A DNA stretch of 64,000 nt from Iphione sp. A-MEVVRFRX5 (lineage: Eukaryota), in the NCBI GenBank assembly GCA_976226885.1, contig OZ320314.1, forward strand, positions 63,240,001 through 63,304,000, read 5' to 3'. A program made the position numbers and the translations under genes. The notes under the pieces were generated by a model. The model made no database searches, was not told the origin of the DNA, and saw only the letters and a list, made by a program, of their open reading frames with translations. Positions 1,461 through 62,951 of the stretch are shown one piece after another. Each line of letters starts with the position of its first letter. The first letter of the stretch is position 1.

Positions 1461-1604
1461 TATCACACACACAACGACTTGTAATTGTGGCATCTTGGAG
1501 AGTTTATTTCTTATCGTTCTCCTCAGTGGTCGTTTCTAGACCAAGTTTACATCAACAGTCTCTTAATATACAATGTTATTTACTCAACCAATATACAAAC
1601 AAGC
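1461..1604 (-). repeat. Ngaro split direct repeat B2
   Basis: 144-bp copy of 1823-1966. Confidence 0.9.
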
Positions 1605-1706
1605 GAGTAGACACATACACAAATACACACAAATATTATTGAAATAAACAAATATTGAAAGTACGCATTCAGGATGTACACTAAACAGTTGCTGGGAGGG
1701 TGGAGG

Positions 1707-1966: not shown

Positions 1967-1976
1967 CAAGCCAGGT

Positions 1977-2876: not shown

Positions 2877-2967
2877 CCGTCGCTTGAGACTCTCTGTAGT
2901 GATGTCCTCCCTCTGCCTCTGTGCTGCGCGCTCGGCCAGCCCTCGAAGCCTGGGGTCTGTAATAGAC

Positions 2968-5696: not shown

Positions 5697-5706
5697 TTTT
5701 AGGCGT

Positions 5707-5823
5707 CTTTTCGAGCTCAGTGCAAACGACCAACTGACGCCTCGTAGGGCGGGAACGCCCTTATTTAAGAATGCACTGAGTCGCCCCCTGGTGTAATAAG
5801 ATCGTACCCTACAGTACGACACC
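5707..5823 (-). repeat. Ngaro split direct repeat A1
   Basis: Copy of 1707-1822; contains a TATA-like TTAAATA about 70 nt upstream of the ORF1 ATG. Confidence 0.88.
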
Positions 5824-6633: not shown

Positions 6634-8515
6634 GGATCAAGACTAACACAGTATCTAGCTATGATAATTGAATAATGTACCACCACAGTATTTAAACAAA
6701 ACCAGGTACCACCAAACTGAAACTTGTAGGCTACCTATACATAAAATACACCAACCACCTGAAAAACTAAAATATTGTCAACCACAGGATCAATACAAAG
6801 TTCAGGCAAACATACAGGTACATGTACACATTAAAGTAAATATTCCTGAAATGAAATGACAAAGTTAATGTCCAAACAGGTTCAAGACCTCAGAATCAAA
6901 TCAAATGTCTCTATAAAGTTCAGGTTCTAAACCTTCTCAGAATTTAATCAAATGTCACTTCAAAGTTCATCCCAGTACTAATGGTACAATCAGACTCTCA
7001 GTCTTTGTAGATTTCAGTAATTAAACTCCATTTGTCACACATTAAAGTTCAGTATTTGAACTTTCCTGATCAAACAGCACACACCAACGTCCTCAGTTCT
7101 CTTTGGGGTGTTCTCACACACCTCTGTAGACAGTCCTTGCTGACTTTTGACAACTTGTTATACATTGCCATGCCTCCTCTGGGCTCTGGCGCTTGTAGAC
7201 AGTCTTTTATCACAAAAATCGACCATATAACACGGTTATTAAATCTTCCCACACTTGTAGATGAACTTTGGCCGCTTAAAACACAAAAATCGCCACTATG
7301 ACGTTTTCCACACTCTGCAAACAGCCTGCTTCTTCAGTATTTAAACTTCGCCGCTTCTCCCGGTCAGTCTCTTCAGGTTTCCACACCTCCTAGACAGGTT
7401 CACCGACTTTGGACAGCTTTTACGCAGAACGGCGACTTTTGACGACTTTTCCTCTTCCTCTGGATCATCGGCAACACTTACAAGCAGTTCCCACGCTTGT
7501 AGGTAGACTTGGCTCCTTCTACTTCAGTATTTAGACTTTTGCATTTGTCATAGAGTTCGTTTCAGTACTCCCCATACTCATTTTATGCACAACGGCGATT
7601 GTGACGCCCTTGAGGGTAGGTAGACTTGGCTCCTTCTACTTCAGTATTTAAACTTCGTTTTTTGCACTCAGTTAATCAGTTCCAACGTTCAAGACAGGTT
7701 TGCCGACTTTGACAGTTCTGCTGCTTCTCTCAGCCAGTTATCAGGAGTTACCACACCTCTACACCGGCCGGCGACCATTTGACAGCTTTTGCGCGGTTGA
7801 CCACGCCTCCTGGGCCACTCCAGTCACTTCCCTGCTGTACCCACGTGATATTTTCGCGCCAAATCAGCGGTCAGATGCTACCAGTGACCTAGCTAGACTG
7901 CCACGGCATCCTCAGTGACTCAGTAGCGCTACCCACGCTCTGCACAGCTGTCTCCTGGGTCTCCCCAGGGATTTGAGCCTCTCTAGATGTTGTACTGGCC
8001 GGCCTAGCATGGTCTAGACCTAGCGTTCTAACGTTGTTACATTCAAATAAACGTTCCTGATGATACACTCACAGTATCCCACTTGGGGTCAATATAAATG
8101 GGCTCAGAACCTCCTCTCTGTGTCTATCCACACTTTTGTCTTGATATCTGTTCTCCTCCCCAAGGAAATACAGCATTCAAGCTAAGCAGAGTCAGTATTC
8201 AACATGGCGGCCAACTCGGCCGTTACAGTGGACATCAACATGATCAAACACTCCTGGCTTTACCATCACAATGTCACACAAATAGTCACTCACATATGTA
8301 TGATAGTCCCTCTTCTGTGTCTCTCCACAATCTTGTTGAGGTGTCCTCTCTCCTTTCCAATGAAATCCAGCATTTAAGCTCAGTGGGGTTGTACTCCCTC
8401 ACTCCTCCTTTGTTTATGAGTACCTCCTCACATGGCAGTCCACAAAACTTGATTTCCTTGGTAAATCCCTGTTTAGGACTCACTCCAAACTTGCTCCTTG
8501 GTTTCTCCTGATGTT

Positions 8516-14143: not shown

Positions 14144-14547
14144 GATGTTCTATGTCACATATTTCGACCGGGTTTGTATGTGATATCATCAGATGTGCTA
14201 TCGTAATGATTTGATTGAAAATGATGGTGATGAAAATGATAACAGTGTAGATATGATGATCCGATATTTTGTCGATAGATGGATGAAATCAAAGATGGTT
14301 CAAACGAAAGATAAGATATATGGCGTGCCCTCCCGGAAAACCTGTTTTTGACAGTTAAGCAAAAAGTTTGCAAATATTCCAGTATATTCAAGGACAAAGT
14401 GAAATATACTTCATGGCTAGTACAATGCATATCATGACATCAAGTATTAGTCAATGTACAGACGCGGTAACAGTTTTAAGCAGCAACAGAGCGTGTTAGT
14501 CAAAGAGTTCTTTTCTGACAATTTATCAAGGTCACTGAATGAGTTAC

Positions 14548-15315
14548 TTATCTGTGTCTTGCAATGTAGTCAGCAAATATCAGTTGTTCTTGGTTGTAGA
14601 GGCGTACTAGAGCGTACTCCAGATGGGATACAGCTACCGGGACCCATTGTCTTCGCAAATGGCAGCCGTCTCGTAACCTGGCATATCGGTGCCGCCATCT
14701 ACCATTATGGCGACTATGTACAGTCCACATTGTCCAAGGTATTGGCAGTCTATGCATGAGGTTGAAAGATACAATCCACCGGTTCACAGCAACAACTAGG
14801 CGATTTAGAATTACTTGTATGCGTCGTGCATTTCCACCGCGATTCATGTACCCATTCATTCTGTAGTTACTGGTACTGTAGTCAACTCCGCAGATGGTCG
14901 AAATGAATACATATCTACCAGGAAACCTCACGGTTAACCTGTCGTATGCCTGGCGGTAGTCATGCGTTATTTCATTTATTGCTGTCTCAATATCATGGTA
15001 TCTTGGTAATACGAACCGCGTATTGACTCCATTTCTGCTGGCACGAAATAGCTCCGTCAGGTTGTTTCCTCCCACCCAGAGGATGATGGCCCATGGTATA
15101 TAAGGTATATACACATTTTCGAACCGCTCCACTACGTCTAGGATTCGAGCTCCTGGGTAGTAGTATACCCTCACCAACCAGTTATGATTTTCGAAAAACT
15201 CCTCTGTGCCCCGTCCATGACTGCTAGATAAGAGCAAGACTCGTCTCAGTTCCCTGGGCGGCATATTCGTTTGGTGTCGTATACACGTGTAATGTCGCGC
15301 ATGTCTCAGTAGCAT
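14548..15315 (-). CDS. SGNH/GDSL esterase-like protein encoded as a separate middle ORF of the LINE
   Basis: Block I LLLSSSHG, block II YPGARI, block III LWVGGNNL, block V DGCHL; Arg-rich C-terminal half. Confidence 0.72.
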   Translation of the reverse strand: MLLRHARHYTCIRHQTNMPPRELRRVLLLSSSHGRGTEEFFENHNWLVRVYYYPGARILDVVERFENVYIPYIPWAIILWVGGNNLTELFRASRNGVNTRFVLPRYHDIETAINEITHDYRQAYDRLTVRFPGRYVFISTICGVDYSTSNYRMNGYMNRGGNARRIQVILNRLVVAVNRWIVSFNLMHRLPIPWTMWTVHSRHNGRWRHRYARLRDGCHLRRQWVPVAVSHLEYALVRLYNQEQLIFADYIARHR

Positions 15316-15413
15316 GTCATGTGACGCTCTGTGGTCACCCAGTGCATGTCTATAAATAGCGTCTCACGCTATGCTGTTTCCATGTTTGGATCCTCGTCCT
15401 CACATAGTTCCCC

Positions 15414-16760
15414 TCAAATTTCTTCTAGGATCTTGCCCATTATATTTTTACCCAAGAAGGTTCCATCCGCGAGCGATTTTGAATTCATGTCCACGCCTGC
15501 TCCCCAAAAAGGGTGTTTATTAGCCTCAATGATCAGATCAGTGCCAGTACCTAGCAGTTCCAGTTTCAGGTCAATATTTTGGGCAAATTTGTGGGTTAGA
15601 ATGTCTTTCATTATGGTGCACCTCTCATCCTTCCATACCTGGCTGCTTGATATACGCTTCCTAAGTTTCTGCAACTTCTCGATGTCGTTCGTCGCTTCAA
15701 TTAAGGCAGCATCATCCTTTTTACCATGCTTAGTAGCTTTGGCCCAGGTGTATGCTTGTTCAGCAGAAATGCATCTTGTTTCACACCAGTCTAGACTGCT
15801 GGTTGTTAGGTTTGAGAAAGGCGCTCCTATACCAGAGAACATCACCTTCCCTTCTTTTGCTACTTGTCTGACTTTTGCTAGATTGTATTCCTCAGGTAGA
15901 GCATGCAGAGCATGGTGATGGTACCATTTTCCGTCAATTTCGATTTTATCATCTCGTAGACGGACCTTCTTCGAGGGTGCCAATTCTTTTACCCTCTTAG
16001 CAATGGCATTTAATTCCTGTCTAGTTTTACGTTCCTGTGGAGATTCATCGTTATTCAGCCAGATTTCTCGACCCTTTAGCTTTGATCTAGCTAATAACAC
16101 CTTCTCCTTGGCTTGCATACGTGCAAAACGGATAAACATTCCGCGTTTACTGTCTTTGTTTTTCCTGGCTGTTCTATATGCATAGTCTATATCATACTCA
16201 TGTATGTCAACCTCCATTGAGGCAAATAGGCCTATACACATCGCCACTGGCGATTCTCCAGGAATCTCATCAAGCCCATCAATATACATATTGTACCTCT
16301 TGTTTAAGACTTGTAGGTTTTGGGCAGATGTTGTGAGCTTATTAACATCGTGTGTGCATTTAATCGGCGCTAATTTATTTTTGTTTTCAGCTCGCAGTTT
16401 ATCGTTTTCAATTTTGAGGTTAGCAACCTCTTTTTTCAGGTCCGCTATCTCCTTGGTGTGACTTTTAACGGTCTCTACCGTTTTCTGTAGAGTATCATTG
16501 ATAGACTTTACCTCAGCTTGAATGCCTTTAGAAATGTTTAATTGTTCATTCGAGCTCTTCTTAATCTCTGCAAGTGATGTTTGCATAGTAACCTGTGTGT
16601 CGCCAGTTTCACCGTCAGCGGCATTGTCACTACCTCCCCTGGGCCTCTTTCTAGACTCAGATCTTCTGCGCTCCGTCCCCTTCACAATATTTATATCCCG
16701 GCGCGATCTATCGGACGGTTCTGCATCTGACATGTTTATAGAGGTTATAGTAAGGAACAT
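15414..16760 (-). CDS. LINE ORF1: basic N-terminus, coiled coil, L1-type RRM/CTD, fused C-terminal NADAR (YbiA-like) domain
   Basis: NMYIDGLDE, IDYAYR, FIRF, IWLNNDES (L1-type ORF1); FSNL, SAEQAY..AKA, W...R..IM...L..KF.QN..L...LL.TG, IEAN..PFWGAG, GKNIMGKIL (NADAR); first ATGs at 16760 and 16733. Confidence 0.85.
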   Translation of the reverse strand: MFLTITSINMSDAEPSDRSRRDINIVKGTERRRSESRKRPRGGSDNAADGETGDTQVTMQTSLAEIKKSSNEQLNISKGIQAEVKSINDTLQKTVETVKSHTKEIADLKKEVANLKIENDKLRAENKNKLAPIKCTHDVNKLTTSAQNLQVLNKRYNMYIDGLDEIPGESPVAMCIGLFASMEVDIHEYDIDYAYRTARKNKDSKRGMFIRFARMQAKEKVLLARSKLKGREIWLNNDESPQERKTRQELNAIAKRVKELAPSKKVRLRDDKIEIDGKWYHHHALHALPEEYNLAKVRQVAKEGKVMFSGIGAPFSNLTTSSLDWCETRCISAEQAYTWAKATKHGKKDDAALIEATNDIEKLQKLRKRISSSQVWKDERCTIMKDILTHKFAQNIDLKLELLGTGTDLIIEANKHPFWGAGVDMNSKSLADGTFLGKNIMGKILEEI

Positions 16761-18543
16761 ACTTACTTTTGTTGGGGGTAGTCTCCTTGTCAGTCTCTTA
16801 GATTGTTTGGCGACGGAAAAGTCAGGTAACAAGCAGGTAGCGGTAGGCCGGTTCACTGTATGCACCTGCTATTTTTAGAGTTTTAATACTTGATCCGGTG
16901 GTTCCGGTAGTTAGTCATGATCTTCTCTCATTATCGCCAACAAGCGAGCATTTTCCAGTTAATTTTCGTTGGTAGCACCATAGTTGTGTGTAATTTTGGT
17001 TTCAGGTAGGTCCACAGTACCTTATATACTGATATTACATGTAATTGCCATGCCAAATGTACACGATTTGTCAAAAAAGGTGTTATTCCAGGAGCGGGGC
17101 GGTTTTTGTGTGACTCACCTTGCCGCCATATTGCCAATCACCCATGGCACCATTGATGAAAATAGAAATAACAAGACTGAACACATAAGCTTCACCTCGT
17201 TTGTTTTTTTTCTAGGGACAGCACTGTTATGGAAAGTATTCACATAAGTGACAGGTACATGAAAGTCAAAATAGCTGAGACAATGAATACCCCGTCCAAA
17301 TTCATCCTAAAATTTGCAAAACTCGTCCTAATATCGGCAAAACGGCCAAATTTGTCCCCAACTCAGCAAAACTCTGCCAAATTCGTCCGAAAATTGGCAA
17401 AACTCTGCGAAACTCATCCGAAAATTGGCAAGACTCAGGTGACAGGTTGAAAATCAATATTAAAATATACAGAAAACAACCCTAAGATGAGTGGTCAGAT
17501 GCTGGAAAAGGCCGGAAATCGCTTGGTCGGTAATCGATAATCTATCATATAGATTATGTATTGAAAGAATTTCCATTCCTTAGTCAAATGGTCGGAATGG
17601 CCGGTTTGGTCGGTAATGGCATATGTCGGGAATCAAGATTCCACTGTATTTGGTTTAGTCATCACCATTTCCTGTCTGATTGTAGAATTTTACAAGAAAT
17701 GGAAACCGCCTGGGCTGATCGTAGGAAAAACCTTTTCTCTTGACATCAAACCATTATAATTTATCAGATACACTTGAATAACTACAGTTAAGCTTGGCTA
17801 AACAAATCCCACTTTCAAGCAAAGCCTATCAATGCAATCCACATTTTATCATTGTCAAATGAACCTGTGTCTTATGTCATTAGTAGAGGAAAAGGGAAAC
17901 TTCTTTCTGTTTGTCTAGGGAAACCTGTTCTCCGTATGTTTCTGAGATACCATTTCTTTTGATATCAAACCACCATAACAGACGATACTTTGGGATAATT
18001 GCAGTCAACATTTGTTAGTTACTCTTGGATGTACACATACCAAAGTTACCAAAGGCCATCAACGTTATGCAAAAAATACAGTCTGCATATTAACATGTCG
18101 TCAATATTCAATAGCACAGGTCAGCAGAACAACTACTACAGTCAAAATTACGTAAGTGTTTCAAATATTAACTCATATATTGGGGGTCTGGGTTTCAAGA
18201 AGTGGTTCCATCATAGGCAGACTAATTATAATTTTGTGCTTTATGTTTCTATTGCAAAGAATTACAACCAACTCTGTCTGATCATTTAGTTGTGACAGTT
18301 AGCATTTCTTATAGAAACTCGCAAAAACGTGATATCATGAACCTTATCATCCTATCTTAACATCTTGATACTGGATGTATAAAAAAACTTTAGTACTGCT
18401 TCTATCATCATATCAACAAGCAACAACCAAAGCTTACAATCTCAGCTTTTCAATGCCACCTTTATTTAATCTCTACAGTGAGGCTTTCTTACCGAAACAA
18501 ACAAAACCACTGCAGCATGATTTGCCACATTACAATGTATACA

Positions 18544-35572: not shown

Positions 35573-35586
35573 TGTAATGTGATAAT

Positions 35587-36207
35587 GTTACCTGTGGCAC
35601 CACAGCCACTCGTATTGTACTTAGCGAACTCTAAGACTTAGTAGTAACATTGCCTGCGGCACCACAGTTGTGTAGATTGTAGTAGTAACGTTGCCTGTGG
35701 CACCACAGCCACTCGTGTTGTACTCTAAGACGTAATAGTAATACTGCCTGTGGTTCCACAGCCACTTGTGTTGCACTTGATGAACTCTAAGACTTAGTAG
35801 TAACGTTGCCTGTGGCACCACAGTTGTGTAGATCGTAGTAGTGACGTTGCCTGTGGCACCACAGTCACTTGTGTTGTACTTGATGAACTCTAAGACTTAG
35901 TAGTAACGTTGCCTGCGGCACCACAGTTGTATAGATTGTAATAGTAACGTTGCCTGTGGCACCACAGCCACTTGTGTTGTACTTGATGAACTCTAGGACT
36001 TAGTAGTAACGTTGCCTGTGGCACCACAGTCACTTGTGTTGTACTTGATGAACTCTAGGACTTAGTAGTAACGTTGCCTGGGGCACCACAGTCACTTGTG
36101 TTGTACTTGGTGAACTCTAAGACTTTAGTGCATGTGTACTGGAGAGTAAGCTTAGGGCCGCCTGTGGCACCACAGTCATTTATGCTGGATGGCCTGTGGT
36201 ACCACAG
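35587..36207 (+). repeat. U3 tandem array: 12 units with palindromic core CTGTGGCACCACAG, mostly alternating 62-bp and 41-bp units
   Basis: Units counted by eye; 11 units in the 3' LTR (about 46536-47094). Confidence 0.9.
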
Positions 36208-36354
36208 GCATATAGGATGTCTAAGGTCACCTTGAACCCTGGATGGCAAGGCACCTGCAATATGATTGGTAGACAGAAAAAAATCTTTGGAATGTTGTAG
36301 CCTTTTTATTCCATGACTGATACATTGTACTAATCACATGACCAGGAGTTTGGC

Positions 36355-36390
36355 TATAAATATGGGCCCGGTGTGGCCAATAAAACAGTT
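36355..36390 (+). promoter_or_regulatory. LTR core promoter: TATAAAT (36355), AATAAA (36379), Inr-like CAGTT (36386)
   Basis: TATA to Inr spacing about 32 nt; poly(A) signal lies just upstream of the predicted start. Confidence 0.6.
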
Positions 36391-36672
36391 TGCACTTGGA
36401 CCTCACTAGTGGACCTTGTTGATTTGGGATGTAACAAACCCACTTGGATTACCTAGGGTTGGCACTTGGATGTAACCGCACTGGGACTACAGTGAAGTAA
36501 CTGAGACAGGATAGCACTAGACATAGCTGGATCTACCAAGTGGGAGATTTAACAGAGAATTATCCTGGAGTTAGGACTTGGATAAAATATCACTGGAATT
36601 ATAGTGGAGTAACTAAGCGAGTTGGACTTAGTTGGATTACACCAAGTGAGGAAGTCAGCCATTAAATTACAC

Positions 36673-36690
36673 TGGTGGCAGCGGTGGGAT
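36673..36690 (+). promoter_or_regulatory. Primer-binding site complementary to tRNA-Leu (AAG/UAG)
   Basis: TGGTGGCAGCGGTGGGAT, 18 nt complementary to the recalled tRNA-Leu 3' end ATCCCACCGCTGCCACCA. Confidence 0.88.
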
Positions 36691-36703
36691 AAACATTGAC
36701 AAC

Positions 36704-37543
36704 ATGGCTACACACTACGTGGCAGTGGACGACGAAGTGCAGATTCGGGTTCCTAGCCCAGCACCAGCGGGCAGCGATGAGGAAGAAGGTGAGCAATTTG
36801 AACTGGCCCCTGAGCAGCCATTGAAAATGAATGCCATGAAGCCAGAGCGCTTCGATGGTAAGACTGTGGATTGGGACAGTTGGATAGGCCAATTCACGGA
36901 GTGGGCGGATGCTTGCAAGTGGAATGAGAATACCCGCTGTTCCGCATTAACACTATCACTCACTGGCCCAGCGCGAATGTATTATGGGGATCTACCGCCA
37001 GAGGATAAGCGGGATTATGGGTCACGGGTCACTGCGTTGGAGCGACGGTTCGGCAGGCGACGCGACCGAGTGGTGGCCATGCAGAAGCTCTCCAGTATCC
37101 GTAGGCAAAAGGACGAGGACGTTCGCGACCTGGCCGATCGAGTGAGGCGTCTGGTGAGGAGTGCATACCCTGATGTGTCCGGGGAAACCCGGGAGCTGGC
37201 AGCCGTAGCCGCTTTTCAACGATCTTTGGCCGATTCTCTTCATCTCAAGTGCCTGGAGGCGAAGTGTACAACTTTGGACGCCGCTGTACAGGTGGTGGAG
37301 ACCCAAGAGCGCTTCGTCGCTAAGAAGATACAGGTAGTACAGGCCCCCTCAACTCCGGCGTGGACAAAACCTATGGAGGAACTTACCAAGGAGCTCGCGA
37401 AAATCCGAGAGGAGATGCAGACCCGAGAGGAAGTACGAAACAGGAAGCCACGCTACACAAAATGCTTCCAGTGCGGGCAGGACGGCCATTTTCGACGGGA
37501 CTGTCCTGAGTTGCAGGGAAACGGATCCCAGTCGGCCAACTAG
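36704..37543 (+). CDS. gag: Gag (279 aa) with CCHC zinc knuckle
   Basis: PERFDG, WDSWIGQF, LSLTGPA, DLADRVRRLVRSAYP, CFQCGQDGHFRRDC. Confidence 0.93.
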   Translation: MATHYVAVDDEVQIRVPSPAPAGSDEEEGEQFELAPEQPLKMNAMKPERFDGKTVDWDSWIGQFTEWADACKWNENTRCSALTLSLTGPARMYYGDLPPEDKRDYGSRVTALERRFGRRRDRVVAMQKLSSIRRQKDEDVRDLADRVRRLVRSAYPDVSGETRELAAVAAFQRSLADSLHLKCLEAKCTTLDAAVQVVETQERFVAKKIQVVQAPSTPAWTKPMEELTKELAKIREEMQTREEVRNRKPRYTKCFQCGQDGHFRRDCPELQGNGSQSAN

Positions 37544-37550
37544 GCCGGGA
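37516..37550 (+). promoter_or_regulatory. Predicted -1 ribosomal frameshift signal (G GGA AAC plus downstream stem)
   Basis: Slippery heptamer in gag frame; -1 frame is open for 23 codons into pol; CGGCC-AACTA-GGCCG hairpin follows. Confidence 0.75.
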
Positions 37551-37584
37551 TGGTACGACTGGAATAACACTAACGGGGACTACA

Positions 37585-40500
37585 ATGGAACCAGGTCAGG
37601 GACCACGGCTGAAGGTGAGCCTTGATGGAAGGTCAGTAGAACTGTTGATTGACACTGGTGCTGAGGTATCCATTGTTAACCCCCGTGTGGTCCCTGGCCT
37701 GGAGGGAGAAGGGTCCCCGACACGTATCACTGGGGTGGGGGGACATGTTATCCCTACCTTAGGGCATCATACCTGTGTACTGGAGATAGCAGGGGAGAGC
37801 TTCAGTCATTCCTTCCTAGTAGCGGAGGTGGAAGAGGATGGGATCTTGGGAAGCGACTTTCTGTGTCAACACCGCGCAGTGATTGATCTTGCTAGAAAAG
37901 AGATAGCTCTGAACCGGTGCTGCCGAGTGGCTAGACAGGAGACAGAGGTACGAGTGGCCCATGACGTGACATTACCGGCTGGGGCAGGGCTAGCTGTGCT
38001 CATTAACCACCATGGAGAGACACCCCTGATGGTAGAAGGACTATTAGAGTCACAGTGGAGACAGGGGGTTGTTGGGATGAGATGCCTTGTTGAGTCGACC
38101 TTGCCCATGTGGAATACCACCGACACAGAGATATTCCTGAGGCAGGGGACACAGATTGCTGTGGGGGTGCCTACCCAACCCTGGGAGGAAATCCCCGCGA
38201 GCCCCAAGAAAGGTGTGTATGCAATCAGGAAGGCAGTAGCGGATGTCATCCAAGAGTTGGTGAAGCCTACGGATGGGACCCTTACATCTGAACAGCAGGG
38301 GCAACTGAGAAGATTACTAAGAAAACATAGCCCTACTTTTGCCCGGGACCGAGATGACTTGGGGCGCACAGATGTGGTGCAGCACCGCATTTTCACTGAG
38401 GACCGCCATCCTATAAAACAACCCCCGAGGAGACTCCCCCTTTCCAAGAGACAGGAAGAGCGGAAACTAGTTAAGGAGATGAAAGATCTGGGGGTAATCG
38501 TTGAAAGCAGCAGTCCTTGGTCTAGCCCCGTGGTGATGGTAAAAAAGAAGGACGGCACCACTCGCTTCTGTGTCGACTATCGAAAACTAAATGGAAAGAC
38601 GAAGGTTGACGCCTACCCCTTGCCCAGGATCGATGACTCCCTGAGTACCCTGGCGGGGGCCAAATACTTTTGCTCACTTGACCTGGCGTCCGGCTACTGG
38701 CAAGTCAGGATGCACCCAGAAGACCAGGAGAAAACGGCGTTCTCCACCTCGGTTGGGTTGTATGAATTTACGGTAATGCCATTCGGTCTGATTAACGCCC
38801 CAGCAACCTTCGAACGACTAATGGATACAGTGTTGCGCGGCTTGACCTGGGAACAGTGCTTAGTGTACTTGGATGACATTTTGGTCTTTGGGAGGACCTT
38901 CCAAGAAACCATGGCTCGTTTGGATCGGGTGCTGACACGGCTAGCTGCGGCTGGGCTCAAACTCAAGCCCTCTAAATGTCAGCTGTTCCTGCAAGAGATA
39001 GGTTTCCTGGGGCACATCGTCTCACCGAAGGGGGTGGCTACCGATCCCAGTAAGACGAAGAGTATAGAAGAGTGGCCGACCCCGACCTGCACGACAGAAG
39101 TGCGAGCCTTCCTGGGTCTCTGTTCTTACTACCGCCGGTATGTGCCACACTTCGCCAATGTGGCCGCTCCTCTGCACAAGTTGACCGGTACTAAGACGCG
39201 ATTTACCTGGGGAGACCCGGAAGAGGCAGCATTTCGGGATCTGAAGGCGGCTCTAGCGTCTAGCCCAATACTGGGATACCCACAGCCAGAGGGGCGGTAC
39301 TTCCTGGATATCGACGCCAGCAATGTGGGCATTGGAGCTGTACTAGCCCAGAGGCAGGAGGAACGAGAGGTGGTACTGGCCTACTACAGTCGTAGCTTGA
39401 GCGAGACAGAGCGACGGTACTGCGTGATGCGTAGAGAGCTGCTCGCTGTGGTGGCGGCCCTGAAACACTTCCACTTTTACTTGTACGGACAGGAAGTCAC
39501 CGTGCGGACCGATAATGGGGCGGTAAGTTGGCTGCGCCGTATTAAAGACCCAGAGGGGCAGCTAGCCCGTTGGCTGGAACGTGTGGGACAATACAACATC
39601 CAACTGGAGCATCGAGCGGGTCGCTTGAATGCAAATGCGGACGCCCTCTCCCGTAAAACCTGTAGGCAATGCAAACAAGAACACCTAACGGAAGACGCAG
39701 TGATAGAAAAAGTACGAGCTGTGACTCGCAGCCAGTCAACGGGAACTGGACATCCGGAACTACGGATGGCCCAACTCCAAGATGAGGAGGTAGGGCCAAT
39801 CCTTAGAGCTATGGAATCGGACCCCCAACAGCCTGCCTGGGAGTGGGTGGCGCCAGCATCGGCTGCAACGAAGAGCCTTTGGAGACAGTGGAGCCGACTT
39901 ACCGTGAGCGGAGGTCTGCTGCAGAGGAAGTGGACAGGACTTGGCGGGGAGCCTTCCCGGCTGCAGGTGGTCTTGCCAGTCGCCCTTCGAGAAAAAGCCT
40001 TCAAGGAAGTACATGCGGGCCAGATGGGAGCCCACCTAGCTGCCGAACGAACTACCTACCTGGTAGCCCTCGCCTATTACTGGCCGGGGATGACAGGGAA
40101 CATCGCAGCCTGGTGCAGAGACTGTCACTGTGCTCTGCTCAACCGGGATCCTTTCCGGCCGCAGGTGCCTCTGAAAACTTACCTGTCGGGGGAACCCATG
40201 GAACGATGGTCAATGGATGTGGCCGGACCCTTGCCTCTAACTGCGCGAGGAAACCGCTACATCCTGATGGTGGGGGATCACTTCACAAAGTGGCTTGAGG
40301 CGTTCCCCCTACCAGACCAGAAAGCCCCAAAAATCGCCCGGATCCTAGCCGAGGAGGTAATCGCTCGCTATGGTTGTTTCCACGAGCTGCACAGTGACCA
40401 GGGAACAAATTTCTGCAGCGAAATCATCACGGCCCTCTGTGACTATCTGCACATCAAGAAGACCAGGACCACCCCGCGACACCCGCAAAGCGACGGGTTC

Positions 40501-41124
40501 ATTGAACGTAGCTTCCGGACCTTGGGGAAGATGATCAAAGCACATTGCCACGAGAGCCAAGATGAGTGGGACACAGCACTCCCTTTCCTCATGATGGCGT
40601 ATAGGGCTTCACCACAAGCTAGCACCGGGTACACCCCGAACTACCTGATGTTCGGACGTGAGGTTACTCTTCCGGTGCATGCGATGGACGGGCTTCCGTC
40701 GAAAAACCCAGAGGTGGAAGACTTACCTGACCCGGTAGGGGAAATGTTGCGACGACTTCAAGAGGCATATGGTAGAGTCCGGAAGAACCTGAGGACGGCG
40801 GCTCGATCCCAGGCCCGAGCTTATGATCGGAGAATGAAGGGGGAAGCTTTGAAGGCGGGGGCGGTGGTATGGCTCCATGAGGCACAGCCACCAAAAGGGA
40901 GAAGCCCGAAGATTCACTTCCCCTGGTCAGGGCCGTGGCTAGTTACCCGAGCTCTGGATGATGAACGACTGATTGTGCAACGCTCTAAACAAGCGAGGCC
41001 GAGAGTAGTACATCGGAATCGGTTACGGTTGTATCGCGGGGAACGATTACCCCGGTGGATCATCTCCTGGCGGAGGAAGGCGGAGCTCTCCGCCCCAGAT
41101 GGCGGTGGCAGGGTCTCCGTATAG
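37585..41124 (+). CDS. pol: Pol: protease, RT, RNase H, integrase (1179 aa from first ATG; probably expressed as gag-pol)
   Basis: LIDTGA, YLDD, DIDASNVGIG, ADALSR, H..QMGAH...C, DVAGP / SDQG / ERSFR, PWSGPW. Confidence 0.96.
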   Translation: MEPGQGPRLKVSLDGRSVELLIDTGAEVSIVNPRVVPGLEGEGSPTRITGVGGHVIPTLGHHTCVLEIAGESFSHSFLVAEVEEDGILGSDFLCQHRAVIDLARKEIALNRCCRVARQETEVRVAHDVTLPAGAGLAVLINHHGETPLMVEGLLESQWRQGVVGMRCLVESTLPMWNTTDTEIFLRQGTQIAVGVPTQPWEEIPASPKKGVYAIRKAVADVIQELVKPTDGTLTSEQQGQLRRLLRKHSPTFARDRDDLGRTDVVQHRIFTEDRHPIKQPPRRLPLSKRQEERKLVKEMKDLGVIVESSSPWSSPVVMVKKKDGTTRFCVDYRKLNGKTKVDAYPLPRIDDSLSTLAGAKYFCSLDLASGYWQVRMHPEDQEKTAFSTSVGLYEFTVMPFGLINAPATFERLMDTVLRGLTWEQCLVYLDDILVFGRTFQETMARLDRVLTRLAAAGLKLKPSKCQLFLQEIGFLGHIVSPKGVATDPSKTKSIEEWPTPTCTTEVRAFLGLCSYYRRYVPHFANVAAPLHKLTGTKTRFTWGDPEEAAFRDLKAALASSPILGYPQPEGRYFLDIDASNVGIGAVLAQRQEEREVVLAYYSRSLSETERRYCVMRRELLAVVAALKHFHFYLYGQEVTVRTDNGAVSWLRRIKDPEGQLARWLERVGQYNIQLEHRAGRLNANADALSRKTCRQCKQEHLTEDAVIEKVRAVTRSQSTGTGHPELRMAQLQDEEVGPILRAMESDPQQPAWEWVAPASAATKSLWRQWSRLTVSGGLLQRKWTGLGGEPSRLQVVLPVALREKAFKEVHAGQMGAHLAAERTTYLVALAYYWPGMTGNIAAWCRDCHCALLNRDPFRPQVPLKTYLSGEPMERWSMDVAGPLPLTARGNRYILMVGDHFTKWLEAFPLPDQKAPKIARILAEEVIARYGCFHELHSDQGTNFCSEIITALCDYLHIKKTRTTPRHPQSDGFIERSFRTLGKMIKAHCHESQDEWDTALPFLMMAYRASPQASTGYTPNYLMFGREVTLPVHAMDGLPSKNPEVEDLPDPVGEMLRRLQEAYGRVRKNLRTAARSQARAYDRRMKGEALKAGAVVWLHEAQPPKGRSPKIHFPWSGPWLVTRALDDERLIVQRSKQARPRVVHRNRLRLYRGERLPRWIISWRRKAELSAPDGGGRVSV

Positions 41125-41899
41125 GAAGCCGGAATAAGGAGATGGGCGAAGAAGACGTTCGGGACGGGTGTCCTGGAGACTCACATATGAGTCTGAAGAT
41201 AGGAGGACAAACATCCTGGCTGCGCTCGAAATGGTTCGTGGGGAGCGGTGGACGGCCCGGAGCCACTGAGGCTCGAAATAACCACCAGAGGCGTCACAGG
41301 TGGCCTGAGGGTTTATCGACCGGCAACGACCTGTGGGAGGGGAGGCCTCCCTGGTAGCACTCGAAAAGTCCGCGGGGCGATTAGGGAACGCCCGGAAGCG
41401 CATGTCACGCTCAAAAATTCCCTGGAGGAGGATGAACATCCTGGGGTTTACCCGGCCCAAAAGTTCATGGAGGAGGGCGGACCTCCTGGAGTTGCTCGAA
41501 AGGCCTGGCGAGGGAAACGAACACCCTGGAGCGCGCAAAAAGTTTGTGGAACGGGTAGGGAGAGAACGTCCCGGAGGCCGTGGAGCTCGAAACGGTTCGG
41601 TGTAAGAGACGCGGAGAGATCGGAGGATGATGTCGGCATCATTCCCCCGGGAAACATTATGACAGGCAGAAGAAGTAATGAAGCCTAGTTGCGGTATGTG
41701 TCCTCTGGACGGGAGAGAAGACCAAGCTCCAGTCCTTGTCCTCTGGACGGGGGGGTGGCCGAGTTGCCGTCCTTTTCCTCTGGAAGGAGCGAAGCACTCG
41801 GGATGGTGGACGACGGAAACCGAGCTGCGGTCCTTGTCCTCTGGGCGGGCCGTGCTAGAACAAAAGAAAGACGGAGAGACAGTTGAACTATGAACAAAT

Positions 41900-41905
41900 T
41901 TTAAT
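41900..41905 (-). terminator. Predicted poly(A) signal (ATTAAA) of the antisense accessory gene
   Basis: Minus-strand ATTAAA about 125 nt after the stop, followed by a U/GU-rich tract. Confidence 0.5.
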
Positions 41906-42028
41906 TCAAATCACCAACAATGGAACGAAGTGGGTAACAACTGCGAGTGGCGGACGATGAAAGTCATATATATACAAGTTACGGTCGCGGGATGAGTCTA
42001 TGTACAGATGGACGAGCGGAAAGTCCAC

Positions 42029-42728
42029 TTAAGAAGAGGAGGGAGGGGCATCCTCATCCTCGTCCTCGTCGGAGATTAGGATGGGATGCCATGCCAGGTC
42101 CCCGGGCTGCAGGTCGGGGTACCACGACGACAGGAAATCGGCCGGCCAGGAGGAGAGGGAAGCCCGCCCGAGGACTGGCCCCACATCAGGAGAACTGGAT
42201 GGGGCAGGCGAGCGGGATGGCGTGTCCACCGGCGAGCTCGTGTCCTCCGGGGAAGGCGACCGAGGACAGGTGGCGGAGGAGGTAGTGCTCGTAGAGTCAA
42301 CCTCGGTGGACGAGGCCACACCGCTAGAACAGCTATATGAGGGCGAGGCGCTGACGTCAGAGCTCGAGGAGGGCCAGGGGTCCAGCTGACTGGAGGTCAT
42401 CGAACAATGAGACCAGTCGTCCTCATCGGTGTGGCTGGATTCGACGTTGTCGAGGGAGGCGAGGTAGCTGGATACCTCTCCCAAACCGAGGTCGGGGGAC
42501 ACCGAGTCCTGGCGGGACCACAGAGGATCGTCGCTGCGGGGAAGAACTGGCTGGATCACCGGGTGCACAGAGATGCCCACCCAATGATCCGGGCCGTACA
42601 ACCGAATGTTGCCCGGAGCTGGGATGTACAGCGGATGGGTGGACATGGGATGCAACCCATACACCCTTATCGTAGGCCCAGGGGTGCCCACATCAATAAA
42701 CCGATAATACGGATCCGGGGGCTGAGAT
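42029..42728 (-). CDS. Antisense accessory gene, exon 2 (Pro/Tyr-rich segment then Ser/Asp-rich acidic tail)
   Basis: Acceptor T28-AACCCTTCTCTTGTTCCTCTTTCTAG at 42729; phase matches exon 1; open to the stop at 42029. Confidence 0.62.
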
Positions 42729-42750
42729 CTAGAAAGAGGAACAAGAGAAG

Positions 42751-42786
<36 letters not shown>

Positions 42787-42890
42787 GAACTCACCTGGAA
42801 CCTCCAAAGGAACATCAGTAACCGGCTTCAGGAAATCCAACATGGCAACTGGTAACTGGAGAAGGCCCCTAGCTGCATGTAAGTGCCTAC

Positions 42891-43024
42891 CTATCCTCCA
42901 CGGGGGGATAACCTTTCTGCTCTTCAGGGAAGTAATCCTCTCCCACAGGAGGACACCTCTCCTGATCTTCTGGTAGAAAGGCCCCTCCCTGGGAGAGGCC
43001 TGCAAGGTACGCTGGTAGTTCCAT
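42891..43024 (-). CDS. Antisense accessory gene, exon 1 (MELPAYLAGLSQGG...PPVEDR)
   Basis: ATG 43024 (alternative 43051); donor AG|GTAGGC at 42890; spliced ORF 277 aa. Confidence 0.6.
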
Positions 43025-43054
43025 GGGTGTGTACTGTCGGACGTCTAACATCGG

Positions 43055-43090
43055 ACTGACGGGTGACCATCGGTCGCACGCTCTTATATA
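43055..43090 (-). promoter_or_regulatory. Antisense core promoter: TATATAA (43090-43084) and Inr TCAGT (43059-43055)
   Basis: TATA starts 33 nt upstream of the Inr A; ATG 33 nt further downstream. Confidence 0.62.
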
Positions 43091-43108
43091 GCGAACGGAT
43101 AGAATTGA

Positions 43109-43914
43109 CTGGGGAACCGCAGTCGAGCGACAAACTGCGTAATCGTGCCTTGACAATACGACTGCGGAACCACAGCGAACAGATGGAATCGACTGGGGAA
43201 CCGCAGGCGAGCGGGAAACTGCGTAATAGCGCATTGATAATATGACTGTGGAACCACAGCGACATGGAGCATACGACAACAAGACTGCGGGGGCGCAGGC
43301 CGAGGGGACACCTTACCCCTGATACAGCCGACCATACCTTAAGAGGAAGCAGAACAGGAATTCGTGGGCTGTGGTACCACAGTCGAGGAACGACTCGGTG
43401 ACTGGGGACCCACAGTCGAGGAGGGGGGAATCCCGGAAGCGGACAACCCAAACATCCGCTAGCCTCGTTGTCGTTCTTGGGGAAGCCCTCCTGCGCGTTC
43501 GGGGAAGAGGAGCGTTTACTGTTCGAGGAAGAACTGATCGTAGAGAAGAAGACTTCCAAAAAGGAGGAGGAGAAAGACGGGCCACGAAGCAGAGGCAACT
43601 GCGGAACCACAGCGAGAGAGGAAATGCCGCGTTGAACACCAGAGGGAGGAGAATTGACCAGCCTCCTACGAACGGCGGCCGACTTCGTGGCGACTGCGGT
43701 CCCGCAGTGAGTAGCGGCTGCGGCCAACCTCCGTAAGTAAGTAACTGTGGAACCGCAGGGACAGTCGACAGAGGGGGACGGCCTATGACAACTGAGTTAC
43801 GGACCGAAAGTTGCCGATTTTTCTACAGACGGCGGCCGGCTTCGTGGCGACTGCGGTCCCGTAGTGGGTAGCGAACGGCCAACCTCCGTAGGTAAGACGA
43901 CTGCGGAACCGCAG
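43109..43914. promoter_or_regulatory. Internal array of about 11-12 palindromic CTGBGG-NN-CCRCAG sites between the divergent accessory genes
   Basis: Copies at 43109, 43162, 43193, 43246, 43369, 43402, 43599, 43694, 43745, 43851, 43901 (degenerate 43285); embedded in about 84-bp and about 157-bp duplications. Confidence 0.8.
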
Positions 43915-43972
43915 TGATAGTCGACAGGGGAACGGCTTATGACAACTGGGGGACCCCATACGACTGTTGAGG

Positions 43973-45493
43973 ATGCCTCGTGTCAGAATTGAAACGCCCC
44001 GGCTTCCAATTATATGGAAGACAGAGGATCCCCTGCCCCCGGGGGCTGAGTTTTGTGAACTGTGCCTGCCCCGGAAACGTCCTTTCTTTAGGGGATTCTC
44101 GTTTGACCGCCACAAGGAGGAGAAACATCAGGGGAAACGGGGACGAGATCTCCTGTGTCTGTGGTGCCCGAGCGCCATTACCGATGAACACTACTGGGTG
44201 ACGCACCAGCGTCGTTATCACCCGTGGGTTGTTGCTTTGGGGTTAGCGGAAAAACCCTATCGTGTGTTGTGTGATGCTGCTCCCCATGGGGGGAAGACGG
44301 TGCAAGCCCCAGACGACGAACTGACAGACATCCTGGTGCGAGCCCGACAACTGAGACAGGACGGGTGGTATATGAGTGAAGAGGAGGCCATGACCCATCT
44401 GGCTGGGTGTCCACGACGAGCAGCCCCACCCCCGGTCCCGCGACAGATACGACTGGGGTCTCCCCCTCGTGACGAGCAAGACATGGAAGAGGAGGAGGGG
44501 GGCCCTGGGGCTCCCATGGGGGGAGGGGAGCCCGAAGTACCCGCGGGTCCCGACCTACCAGACCTGGAGGGGGCTGAGGGACCGGCACCTGGCCCACCCG
44601 CTCCCCATCAACTCGAGGGGGGTGACATACCTGACGGGGGGGATGACCCCCCAGCGCCGGCCCCAGAGGAACCTGACTACCCCGTGGCCCCTGACGAAGC
44701 TCCAGTGCAGCCAGGAGACCCTCCAGGCCTCAACGACAGACAGGACGGGGCGGAAATGGACGACTTGGCCTTGGTAATGGGGCATTTGCGGGCTGCAGTT
44801 GAGCCAGGGGCAGCGGCCGCGGCCGCCCAGCCCGGCCTCCCGCTTGGCGATGGAGAACAGGCCGCACCCGCCCCGACATCGCCGACGCTACCCGAAGGAC
44901 GTCTAGCCCAGAAGGTTAGACACTTTCTACCCCCCGACTACGTCGAACCGGTGTCACGACGCATGCGGGATGTCCTAGATGGGCTAGTCTGGCCATACAC
45001 CCCGGCTCTGAGGGCTACCATGCTTCCGGCTGTCGTGCGCCTCCCGTCGTTCATCACTTGGCCCCCGCGAAGGTGGGAAGAAATGTCAGGTGCCCAACGT
45101 ATGATGGCCAGCGCATCTTTGGCTTGGGTATTACACCTTGCTGAGGGGGACGGGCCTCCTCCCGACTCCCTCTTAGAGCCTTTGCGCAGGCGGCCCACCC
45201 TACTTCTGCCCGCCGTAGCCTTGCCCGACCACCAGGACTGGGGACGACTGGGGTCGGTCTACGACCTTCATAACTCGACTGTGGACGCAGCACAGAGCGC
45301 TTTGGAGGCTATGCGGTGGGGACCAAGTAAAACACGTATATACGATGTGCGGTGGCAGAGGGAGGTCAGGGAGGTCACAACGCGACGACAAGCCACCCAA
45401 CCGACGGTACACTACGTATGCTTAGGGGCCCCTCCATGCCAGCACCCGGTGGCTGGGGGCGACGTGGGTCCCGCCTTACCACCCGTTGTTTAG
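43973..45493 (+). CDS. Accessory ORF3: two C2H2 zinc fingers, acidic/Pro-rich middle, unrecognised C-terminal domain (506 aa from ATG)
   Basis: CELC-x15-H-x4-H and CLWC-x12-H-x4-H; long open frame; no signal peptide or clear TM helix. Confidence 0.75.
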   Translation: MPRVRIETPRLPIIWKTEDPLPPGAEFCELCLPRKRPFFRGFSFDRHKEEKHQGKRGRDLLCLWCPSAITDEHYWVTHQRRYHPWVVALGLAEKPYRVLCDAAPHGGKTVQAPDDELTDILVRARQLRQDGWYMSEEEAMTHLAGCPRRAAPPPVPRQIRLGSPPRDEQDMEEEEGGPGAPMGGGEPEVPAGPDLPDLEGAEGPAPGPPAPHQLEGGDIPDGGDDPPAPAPEEPDYPVAPDEAPVQPGDPPGLNDRQDGAEMDDLALVMGHLRAAVEPGAAAAAAQPGLPLGDGEQAAPAPTSPTLPEGRLAQKVRHFLPPDYVEPVSRRMRDVLDGLVWPYTPALRATMLPAVVRLPSFITWPPRRWEEMSGAQRMMASASLAWVLHLAEGDGPPPDSLLEPLRRRPTLLLPAVALPDHQDWGRLGSVYDLHNSTVDAAQSALEAMRWGPSKTRIYDVRWQREVREVTTRRQATQPTVHYVCLGAPPCQHPVAGGDVGPALPPVV

Positions 45494-45629
45494 AGAGCCG
45501 ATAGCCATATGTTCTACCCTAGTAGGGCGTGATGGGTGACACAAATTGTTATGATCGGATGTTTGATGCTAAGCGCTGTTATCATTGTTGACTGTGATGT
45601 ACCCCTACCGTTGTTACTGCAATTAACTT

Positions 45630-46445
45630 AATCATTACCTCCTAAGGAGGCTTGGCCAGATTACCCCGTGGATAGATGATCATTACCTCCCGTGGAGGCT
45701 TGACCGGATTACAGTAAGGATGTTAAATGAAAAGGGGACTGTACCCCACAAAAAAAACTGTTATTGGACGATGCATAAGCTGTGATTGGTTGTTGTTATA
45801 ATACTGTGTTGTTGCCTAAGTGGATCACTACCTCCTAGGGAGGCTTTGCCAGAGTGTAGTAAGGATGTTACAGGAAAGGACAGAAGGGGACTGTACCCCA
45901 CAAAAAGAGTGTTAAGGAGTTGTTTTCAACCAATGTATAAGTAGTGATCATTGATCGTATGCTGTTGTGATTTTTTTTAGATGAATCAATTACTACCTCC
46001 TAAGGAGGCTTTGCCAGATTGGACCCCAGGGGGGGTAAGAGTAGGTATCCCAGATTGTTTTGATAAGGAATGTCTGTGATCTTTTGTTTATTGTGATATC
46101 TTGTGTTACCTAGACAATTACTACCTCCTACGGAGGCTTTGCCAGATTCATCCACATTTACTCAAGAGTTGTTAGAGTGAGGATGTTAACAGTTAAAAAA
46201 GGGGGACTGTACCCCCACAAAAAGAGTGAGGCTCTTACAGTTACTGGGATGTTTATCTGTGATCTTTTGGGTTATTGTGATATCACTACCTCCTAGGGAG
46301 GCTTTGCCAGATTCAATGATTAACTTGTATACTGAGGAAAAAATTTGCTGCTTAGGTGACCATTACCCCCTATGGGGGCTTTGCTAAATTTACCAGTATT
46401 TATCCAAGGAGTTAGTAGATCAACTGTTATCCTCTACGGAGGCTT
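45630..46445 (+). repeat. Dispersed array of 8 CCTCC-NNN-GGAGG dyads and 3 GGGG-ACTGTA-CCCC dyads upstream of the PPT
   Basis: Dyads at 45638, 45686, 45831, 45996, 46124, 46289, 46366, 46431; second type at 45734, 45886, 46201. Confidence 0.85.
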
Positions 46446-46508
46446 ATGTTGGCTCAGGATGTACTTCTCAGGGAAACAGGTTTTCACTTCCCCCGGTAGA
46501 CTATTTTT

Positions 46509-46521
46509 AAGGTGAGGAGAG
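46509..46521 (+). promoter_or_regulatory. Polypurine tract
   Basis: AAGGTGAGGAGAG directly before the 3' LTR TGTAATG. Confidence 0.75.
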
Positions 46522-47558
46522 TGTAATGTGATAATGTTACCTGTGGCACCACAGCCACTCGTATTGTACTTAGCGAACTCTAAGACTTAGTAGTAACATT
46601 GCCTGTGGCACCACAGTTGTGTAGATTGTAGTAGTAACGTTGCCTGTGGCACCACAGCCACTCGTGTTGTACTCTAAGACGTAATAGTAATACTGCCTGT
46701 GGTTCCACAGCCACTTGTGTTGCACTTGATGAACTCTAAGACTTAGTAGTAACGTTGCCTGTGGCACCACAGTTGTGTAGATCGTAGTAGTGACGTTGCC
46801 TGTGGCACCACAGTCACTTGTGTTGTACTTGATGAACTCTAAGACTTAGTAGTAACGTTGCCTGCGGCACCACAGTTGTATAGATTGTAATAGTAACGTT
46901 GCCTGTGGCACCACAGCCACTTGTGTTGTACTTGATGAACTCTAGGACTTAGTAGTAACGTTGCCTGGGGCACCACAGTCACTTGTGTTGTACTTGGTGA
47001 ACTCTAAGACTTTAGTGCATGTGTACTGGAGAGTAAGCTTAGGGCCGCCTGTGGCACCACAGTCATTTATGCTGGATGGCCTGTGGTACCACAGGCATAT
47101 AGGATGTCTAAGGTCACCTTGAACCCTGGATGGCAAGGCACCTGCAATATGATTGGTAGACAGAAAAAAATCTTTGGAATGTTGTAGCCTTTTTATTCCA
47201 TGACTGATACATTGTACTAATCACATGACCAGGAGTTTGGCTATAAATATGGGCCCGGTGTGGCCAATAAAACAGTTTGCACTTGGACCTCACTAGTGGA
47301 CCTTGTTGATTTGGGATGTAACAAACCCACTTGGATTACCTAGGGTTGGCACTTGGATGTAACCGCACTGGGACTACAGTGAAGTAACTGAGACAGGATA
47401 GCACTAGACATAGCTGGATCTACCAAGTGGGAGATTTAACAGAGAATTATCCTGGAGTTAGGACTTGGATAAAATATCACTGGAATTATAGTGGAGTAAC
47501 TAAGCGAGTTGGACTTAGTTGGATTACACCAAGTGAGGAAGTCAGCCATTAAATTACA
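46522..47558 (+). repeat. 3' LTR (1037 bp)
   Basis: Matches the 5' LTR minus one 62-bp unit; followed by the GTAC TSD. Confidence 0.95.
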
Positions 47559-62225: not shown

Positions 62226-62951
62226 TTACCTTCTCCTGTATTCATCAAACTGAGGAGAATGCCATGTCTTGTAGCAATTCCTGTCAACTTTCAAGCAGAG
62301 GTTAACTCTGCAACTTGGCTCTGGACACCACCATGGGGTTTTTTGTTCTTTCTTCAATAATGTGTAGCAAACATAGCAGTTGCGGCGGCCTCCAGAAGGA
62401 ACAGGCATGTGTGATATGCAATAGTCCTTCTTCTCCAGCAGTTGTCGAGGGAGTTGAAATAGAGGGTGTTCTTCATCCTCAGATATATTCGCCAACTGTC
62501 GCACAAGTTCCTCTCGGAAGGCTAGATGGCTGTATCCTGCAGGTCTGTTAAGTCTCTCATCACCTGGATGTGCTGCACGCCAAGCTTCAAACATGATGTA
62601 TGAGTTGAGTATTGCCATGTCCAGAATGTGGAAGAAAAGCACCTTCCACCAACGTACAGACTTCAACAAGATGCAGTACCTCTTGAGAAGTTGATCTGAC
62701 AAATCTACGCCGCCCATGAAATGGTTGTAGTCATGGACGGCGGTAGGTTTCCTGGTTGTGACTTGGTGGTACTGCCGTTGATTATTCTTTACTGTTCTTG
62801 TGGTATTCACATAGTCGTTTGCAGAGTGGTATGTAGAACACACACACACAGGCTTGCGATCTATCCACTGCAGGCACAAAATACCATCGACCCTCTTCCA
62901 GCGCATGTCACCTCTAGCATGTTGTTTGACCCAGGACTTGTCTTTCATGCA
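62226..62951 (-). CDS. piggyBac transposase (PGBD4-like), last exon with third catalytic Asp and Cys-rich domain
   Basis: Acceptor TATAG at 62952; WIDRKPV, YNHFMGGVDLSDQ, WWKVLFFH, CYVC...CPEPSC...C...C. Confidence 0.9.
   Translation of the reverse strand, partial: CMKDKSWVKQHARGDMRWKRVDGILCLQWIDRKPVCVCSTYHSANDYVNTTRTVKNNQRQYHQVTTRKPTAVHDYNHFMGGVDLSDQLLKRYCILLKSVRWWKVLFFHILDMAILNSYIMFEAWRAAHPGDERLNRPAGYSHLAFREELVRQLANISEDEEHPLFQLPRQLLEKKDYCISHMPVPSGGRRNCYVCYTLLKKEQKTPWWCPEPSCRVNLCLKVDRNCYKTWHSPQFDEYRRR

Follow-up and report, generated by a model that had tools for sequence, protein, structure and literature searches.

A helically phased palindrome array recurs in the LTRs and beside a predicted internal antisense promoter of a young Ty3/Gypsy retrotransposon

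We analyzed a 64-kb window of DNA from Iphione sp. (all coordinates below are those of this window) and found that a 14-bp palindrome, CTGNGGNNCCNCAG (CTGNGG-NN-CCNCAG), forms arrays in both long terminal repeats (LTRs) of one retrotransposon and again in its interior. There were 10 exact copies at 43109–43914, 12 in the 5' LTR, and 11 in the 3' LTR, with 0 copies in the remaining six regions of the window; the mean expected from dinucleotide shuffles was at most 0.01 per region. The explanation we favor for the internal array is that it serves a complex Gypsy retrotransposon as a cis-regulatory block. Each palindrome very probably represents two 6-bp half-sites for a dimer on duplex DNA, placed on one helix face for cooperation or nucleosomal access. 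Because the same block lies in U3 and beside the predicted antisense promoter, we infer that one factor would act on both.

The main features, with coordinates and strand, are as follows.

35573..36671, plus strand: 5' LTR, 1099 nt, with 12 phased palindromes at 35592–36207, TATA at 36355, and AATAAA at 36379
36673..36690, plus strand: primer-binding site
36704..41124, plus strand: gag (up to 37543) and pol, both open; PR-RT-RH-IN, Ty3/Gypsy
42029..43051, minus strand: predicted spliced antisense gene, ATG at 43051, 162-nt intron at 42890–42729, 286 aa
43057..43090, minus strand: predicted antisense TATA and initiator-like start (approximately 43057), with the first palindrome 18 nt away
43090..43257, plus strand: 84-nt tandem duplication, 86% identical, containing 4 sites
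43109..43914, no strand: internal array of helically phased palindromes, CpG-rich
43649..43945, plus strand: duplication with a 157-nt period, containing 4 sites and plus-strand splice signals
43946..43959, no strand: one-mismatch copy just 5' of the ORF3 ATG, out of phase
43973..45493, plus strand: ORF3, 506 aa, with two C2H2-like fingers (aa 28–52 and 62–83)
46522..47558, plus strand: 3' LTR, 1037 nt, with 11 palindromes at 46541–47094

Host element

The arrays belong to an intact element of approximately 12 kb (35573–47558), whose LTR pair, 4-bp target duplication (GTAC), primer-binding site, gag, and pol in PR-RT-RH-IN order place it in Ty3/Gypsy. The primer-binding site is presumably of the tRNA-Leu type; ARAGORN returned 0 tRNAs. 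The two LTRs differ by 1 substitution in 1037 nt and by one 62-nt repeat unit, and the element is very young and intact. Among 120 proteins examined, the best identity to the reverse transcriptase (RT) of the window was 63%. The 5.4 kb from pol to the 3' LTR comprises the predicted antisense gene, the palindrome array, ORF3, and a long 3' UTR. The ORFs scanned gave no env or Tas match, and Pol was that of Gypsy.

Other repeats occur in the element as well. CACTTGG words are repeated in U5 (36387–36671), degenerate, non-coding-looking repeats occupy 41200–41850, with a unit containing AACATCCTGG and GCTCGAAA (approximately 6 copies) and GTCCTCTGG (4 copies), and three copies of GGGGACTGTACCCC lie in the 3' UTR (45730–46228).

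Palindrome arrays

The exact internal palindromes start at 43109, 43162, 43193, 43246, 43369, 43402, 43599, 43694, 43745, and 43901, with further copies that carry one mismatch at 43285, 43851, and 43946; the approximately 11–12 internal copies given in a preliminary description of this DNA were thus a fair count. A motif scan against background, suggested in the same description and run within the window, yielded 33 copies in the element versus 0 in 52 kb of flank, a motif density of the VANC type. The spacer is fixed, as 2-nt spacing accounted for 34 matches in the element, whereas the nine other spacers (0–9 nt) gave 1 altogether and 4-nt spacing gave 0. The view that the arms are kept while the central 2 nt vary was overstated: the internal centres (n = 10) were AA in 7 and TA, AC, and TC in 1 each, those of the 5' LTR (n = 12) were CA in 10 and TT and TA in 1 each, and arm positions 4 and 11 are variable as well. 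The internal array had a GC content of 0.57 and a CpG observed/expected ratio (o/e) of 1.07, versus 0.33 in the LTR and 0.44–0.51 in the flanks.

The two copies of the 84-nt duplication differ at 12 positions, with 0 differences within the 18 fixed motif positions, and 43649–43716 is repeated 157 nt downstream at 81% identity. Owing to these internal duplications, we count approximately seven independent internal sites. The preliminary description had called the flanks otherwise unrelated, which does not hold within the 84-nt and 157-nt duplications; across independent groups and against the LTR sites it does, since 30-nt flanks there mostly shared 4–16 bases, near chance.

Helical phasing and duplex DNA

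Helical phasing is the strongest new evidence for a protein on duplex-DNA sites. The site spacings in U3 (62, 41, 53, 84, and 32) and in the internal array (53, 31, 123, 33, 197, 95, 51, and 106) are near multiples of the helical turn. A free period scan (4–25 bp; 13 independent spacings) peaked at 10.42 bp (p < 1e-4), and p was 4e-4 once two weak sites were included. For the 10 internal sites, R was 0.93 across 800 bp; phasing this strong arose by random placement in 1 of 5000 trials (37 of 5000 without the duplicated copies). Phasing was absent in all 4 of the other repeat families of the element. Cooperative binding and nucleosome rotation would explain the phasing alike.

The sites rarely fold as RNA. 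Positions 4 and 11 were Watson–Crick partners in 4 of 10 internal sites versus 3.5 expected (hand count from column counts), the plus-strand stem probability stayed below 0.35 at 21 of 23 sites, and Rfam gave 0 matches across 13 kb, so that neither a covarying stem nor an Rfam match speaks for a structured RNA. An RNA hairpin was rejected because the arms do not covary and fold poorly. Fixed half-sites with a fixed spacer, non-covarying arms, and helical phasing are what a symmetric DNA site displays, and the fixed palindromes, phasing, lack of arm covariation, and rare RNA folding therefore point to duplex-DNA sites for a symmetric protein. Fixed spacing, uncorrelated arms, poor RNA folding, and 10.4-bp phasing support the dimeric protein-binding site claimed earlier.

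Several other origins or binders were discarded. A coding origin is unlikely, as the open frames of 137–290 aa across the array had no Pfam match and the sites lie in differing frames. AP-2, whose consensus we take to be GCCN3GGC, was rejected as the shared factor, with 9 and 8 matches in the LTRs and 0 in the internal array. Most copies did not fit NF-kB, COE, GCM, CSL, or NFI in a by-eye comparison with their consensus sequences. Separately, at 35592–36207, 9 of the 12 LTR sites are overlapped by the GCCN3GGC palindrome, and none is in the internal array.

Predicted promoters and transcripts

TATA, initiator (Inr), and splice sites are reported here as predicted positions, based on consensus matches or scores. 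A scan of the element for TATA with a CAGT-type initiator approximately 30 nt on returned 36355 and 47242 (in the LTRs), and 43090 and 41974 (both minus strand). The predicted LTR promoter consists of TATA at 36355 and Inr at approximately 36387. The product of the antisense gene is predicted to be Ser-rich and acidic, with 62 S/T, 32 D/E, and 8 K/R in the 232 aa of its main exon; a protein search with the antisense exon found no homolog, and a counterpart of the gene was sought in a related locus, L006, and not established. A third antisense exon (42848–42795) was rejected, as it runs into a stop at 64 aa, which leaves the strongest donor (42794) unexplained.

Two further observations concern this region. 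A 28-nt A run lies in the predicted antisense intron (42755–42794), beside donor 42794, the strongest of the region, which the open splice models leave unused. The second minus-strand TATA and Inr (41974–41940) have no nearby palindrome and many acceptor-like sites beyond, and may mark a second antisense or non-coding transcript.

On the plus strand, splice signals are predicted in the 157-nt duplication (donors near 43737 and 43892, acceptor at 43829), and no TATA was found within the internal array. The ORF3 transcript may start within the array, at a promoter that lacks TATA, or be spliced from the LTR transcript; because no plus-strand TATA was found and acceptors precede the finger ORFs of the five nearest relatives (see below), ORF3 may be LTR-fed. 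The earlier suggestion that both promoters are wired to one factor is therefore kept for the predicted LTR and antisense promoters and not for ORF3, which has no plus-strand TATA in the array.

ORF3 as candidate binder

As proposed, the two fingers of ORF3 would read one half-site, its C-terminal region would dimerise, and its acidic, Pro-rich middle (aa 151–300; 32 D/E, 5 K/R, and 33 P) would activate transcription or block silencing, so that ORF3 on both arrays would close a self-regulating loop like that of foamy-virus Tas or plant VANC. ORF3 is the likeliest of the candidate factors, and the whole model, ORF3 as the binder included, is a serious possibility yet somewhat less probable than not.

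The Cys/His ligand pattern is present twice in ORF3, and its atlas features lay near C2H2 clusters (0.91–0.92). Protein searches and Pfam with ORF3, and an atlas search with aa 300–490, all returned no match. Against a profile of the finger proteins of its relatives, ORF3 came top of 712 window ORFs, but weakly (E = 0.12), and 47 of 1000 ligand-fixed shuffles scored equally high. Its probable membership in the finger-ORF family rests on position, finger layout, and tree. In the window, finger 1 carries R at −1, S at 3, and R at 6, and its two Arg residues suit the G-[T/C/G]-G core of the site; the base preference of Ser at helix position 3 is also invoked for this fit. Judged by such predicted contacts, one alone of the two fingers fits the palindrome.

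Several findings stand against ORF3 as the binder. Finger 2 of the window (D at −1, H at 2, Y at 3, and T at 6) has no Arg at a contact position, and CGYG, the target predicted from both fingers together, is rarer than expected in each array (z −1.9 and −2.3); GYG by itself had no discriminating power. The GNG-reading finger is finger 2 in the relatives and finger 1 in the window, and finger 1 fits the GGAGG array of the 3' UTR just as well. In addition, single-sequence structure models were poor (pLDDT 37 and 41) and supported no dimerisation domain.

The 3' UTR array is a second palindrome family, CCTCC-NNN-GGAGG, with 7 copies at 45638–46378 and 0 in the LTRs, and is unphased. One copy has a symmetric double change, and 4 of 7 fold as hairpins. 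The family is a candidate RNA signal or alternative ORF3 target, and its GAGGCT equals a top word of the LTR of L001, one of the loci described next.

Finger ORFs in related loci

A genome scan with the window RT alone found no relative. An RT-alignment scan gave 70 loci from MAG records, of which two (L004 and L010) were dropped before counting, leaving 68 for analysis. As an observation in itself, the GTDB representative MAGs behind these loci (L001–L070) contain many Gypsy retrotransposon contigs, presumably eukaryote (host-animal) contamination. None of the 68 loci contained the full palindrome or matched ORF3 by tblastn. All five loci of the RT clade of the window (L001, L002, L003, L005, and L006; support 0.68 for the clade and 0.96 for the branch that includes L006) have, after pol, an ORF with a twin C2H2 pattern. 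On a separate branch, L013, L022, L023, and L031 have an ORF with one or two fingers. Pfam C2H2 was passed by 3 of 10 proteins examined, scored below the cut-off in 4, and was not detected in 3, the protein of the window included. A pyrimidine tract and CAG, a predicted splice acceptor, lies 0–3 nt 5' of the finger-ORF ATG in 5 of the 5 nearest loci, and this signal is absent in L013, L022, and the window. By these patterns, a post-pol twin-finger ORF is a clade trait, and because the finger ORF is conserved clade-wide, ORF3 as the candidate binder gains support. We did not find the finger ORF reported as a clade trait in the open-licence PMC and bioRxiv literature, and the available part of PMC6338049 makes no mention of zinc fingers.

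Two side observations concern more distant loci: L040 has an antisense twin-finger ORF after pol (3711–4523, minus strand) on a distant branch, and short CpG-rich stretches (o/e approximately 1.5) precede the finger ORF in L013 (6610–6790) and L022 (6527–6626).

The relatives also allow fingers to be compared with LTR words. Finger 2 is R-x-D-N-x-x-R in L001, L002, L003, and L005. According to Table 1 of PMC7317221, GNG triplets go with designed helices that have Arg at both −1 and 6, and RSDNLVR pairs with GAG, the target in that row being read in reverse order. The LTR repeats of L001, L002, and L005, the three with LTR sequence, contain TGAGG, and the observed versus expected counts were 13 versus 4.2 for GAGGNT in L001, 6 versus 2.1 for GAGGY in L005, and 12 versus 6.3 for GAGG in L002; the three are close kin and count as approximately one case, and GAGG across whole LTRs reached no more than z 0.4–2.3. 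L002 has three CTGYGG-NT-CCCA units similar to the site of the window. A cluster of TGNGG, a pattern picked post hoc after looking, exceeded all 200 shuffles in L001, in L002, and in the two arrays of the window; the 3' UTR of the window and the remaining 23 locus regions gave no such cluster. The finger-bearing loci L006, L013, L022, L023, and L031 lack a TGNGG array, and for two of them, L006 and L013, prediction from the finger code was unsuccessful. The LTR repeats of the relatives (13, 9/27, and 15 nt) are unphased.

A broader proposal is that an animal Gypsy lineage encodes a twin-finger regulator, that its target motif multiplies in the LTR and tracks the finger residues, and that here a phased array at an internal divergent promoter has led to a Tas- or VANC-like circuit independent of retroviruses. 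We offer it with somewhat greater reserve than the model for the element itself.

Other candidate binders

Host RUNX/CBF, named as a candidate in the preliminary description, might instead occupy the sites, so that both promoters share a tissue pattern. An exact TGYGGT is present in one half of 21 of 22 sites (5' LTR 12 of 12, internal 9 of 10), as a RUNX monomer would need; this count overstates independence because the centres descend from approximately two ancestral sites. TGYGGTY in the internal array numbered 9 versus 0.5 expected, and position 4 was never A among 44 halves. The following T is absent in all four CTGGGG halves, all on weak sides, so that it is the weak half that decays. 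The preferred sequences of Runx1 are TGTGGT and TGCGGT, and it can dimerise on a palindrome, but the published dimer has 4 bp between its cores, and with 3 bp the palindrome was occupied by a single molecule (PMC2952845). The Runx1 dimer site of the GM-CSF enhancer has inverted TGYGG cores like those here, with a spacer of 4 bp versus 2 bp at every site of this element (PMC2952845, same part), which departs from the published dimer palindrome. A monomer would not keep the C-T-G-x-G-G of the weak half fixed at a constant distance, and the LTR repeats of related loci carry TGAGG and no RUNX core. The open-licence PMC and bioRxiv literature had nothing relevant on a RUNX dimer of 2-bp spacing, and no RUNX arrays in invertebrate LTRs were found by title or abstract start. 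RUNX thus explains one half of the sites and leaves the fixed palindrome unexplained, and we regard it as rather unlikely. If RUNX does bind, it would do so in a new geometry, on a palindrome with 2-bp spacing.

Another host dimer, of the activator or insulator type, might occupy the arrays, with ORF3 acting elsewhere, for example on the 3' UTR array or on RNA. The evidence for phased duplex sites is blind to the identity of the binder, finger 2 of the window is unlike a DNA-reading finger, and GAGG is enriched in the 3' UTR (18 versus 8.3). Set against this are the zero copies in 52 kb of host flank, a weak test, and the open-licence PMC and bioRxiv literature, in which no factor with this palindrome was found; we know of no animal factor that has it. 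Such a host dimer seems unlikely to us. For the palindrome itself, the same literature contained no relevant report.

The copies could also have arisen neutrally, through duplication and template switching, or be RNA hairpins. Local duplications do occur in both arrays, and good plus-strand folding was seen at 2 of 23 sites, but the cores are fixed amid near-random flanks (the 84-nt duplication spared every one of its 18 core positions), phasing persists without duplicates, and positions 4 and 11 show G-G, G-A, and C-A mismatches, making this reading improbable. Least probable, and very unlikely, is the acidic antisense protein as the element-encoded factor, alone or as a co-activator: its predicted promoter adjoins the array and its S/T- and D/E-rich main exon resembles activation domains, but it has no DNA-binding motif or homolog and hardly any basic residues, and no matching gene was found in L006.

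Comparison with known systems

Repeated host-factor sites in retroelements are familiar from the Su(Hw) array in Drosophila gypsy and the MLV enhancer core, each with one array per element and a host factor; neither is known to have a further array at a divergent promoter in its interior. In its proposed working, the ORF3 circuit would resemble the foamy-virus Tas circuit or VANC, and the element would be a member of neither family. As in foamy viruses, a single factor would act both on U3 and on an internal promoter that lies 5' of accessory genes, with feedback; Tas targets share little sequence, whereas here an identical palindrome recurs in 10–12 phased copies per region (PMC7390438, in the part available). 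Unlike foamy viruses, this is a Ty3/Gypsy element, with neither an env nor a Tas match among the ORFs scanned. In the interior of the element, a TATA and Inr consensus was found on the minus strand only. In contrast to the foamy internal promoter, the predicted TATA promoter would drive the antisense gene, not ORF3, the putative binder and candidate factor.

VANC21 and VANC6 of Arabidopsis VANDAL elements are likewise paired with a short motif that is dense in several non-coding regions, spreads by tandem duplication, and lies beside an accessory protein (PMC5735166 and PMC6719617, in the parts available). However, VANDALs are plant DNA transposons with non-palindromic motifs in the same direction, whereas we describe an animal retrotransposon with palindromes and C2H2-like fingers (same sources). 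As for VANC-type anti-silencing, the CpG o/e of 1.07 in the array and 0.33 in the LTR argues against protection of U3. A third ORF and a promoter outside the LTR, an internal env promoter, are described for the Oikopleura Tor elements (PMC4402516), and a non-env third ORF for LTR elements of rotifers and plants (PMC5718144). In the available parts of these two sources, the ORF3s of the Tor, rotifer, and plant elements are env, exonuclease, or esterase, and neither a finger protein nor a site array common to two regions is described.

The majority of ORF3s in LTR retrotransposons either resemble env or lack an explanation. In the literature consulted, the family-specific regulators that elements encode for themselves belong to complex retroviruses, in the case of Tas, or to plant DNA transposons, in the case of VANC. 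The intact, very young element described here contains both a candidate protein and a phased candidate site of sharp definition; if the ORF3 model is true, it would be an animal retrotransposon running its own transcription circuit.

Elsewhere in the window

Further matches in the window are all on the minus strand. At 489–6636, RT and weak tyrosine-recombinase matches with split direct repeats are DIRS/Ngaro-like. At 11369–16868, there is an ORF for a LINE-like endonuclease-RT. The coiled-coil ORF upstream of it ends in a NADAR domain (E = 2e-20) and would be an unusual ORF1 if it is part of the same element. A fragment of a DDE_Tnp_1_7 (piggyBac-like) transposase lies at 62226–62951.
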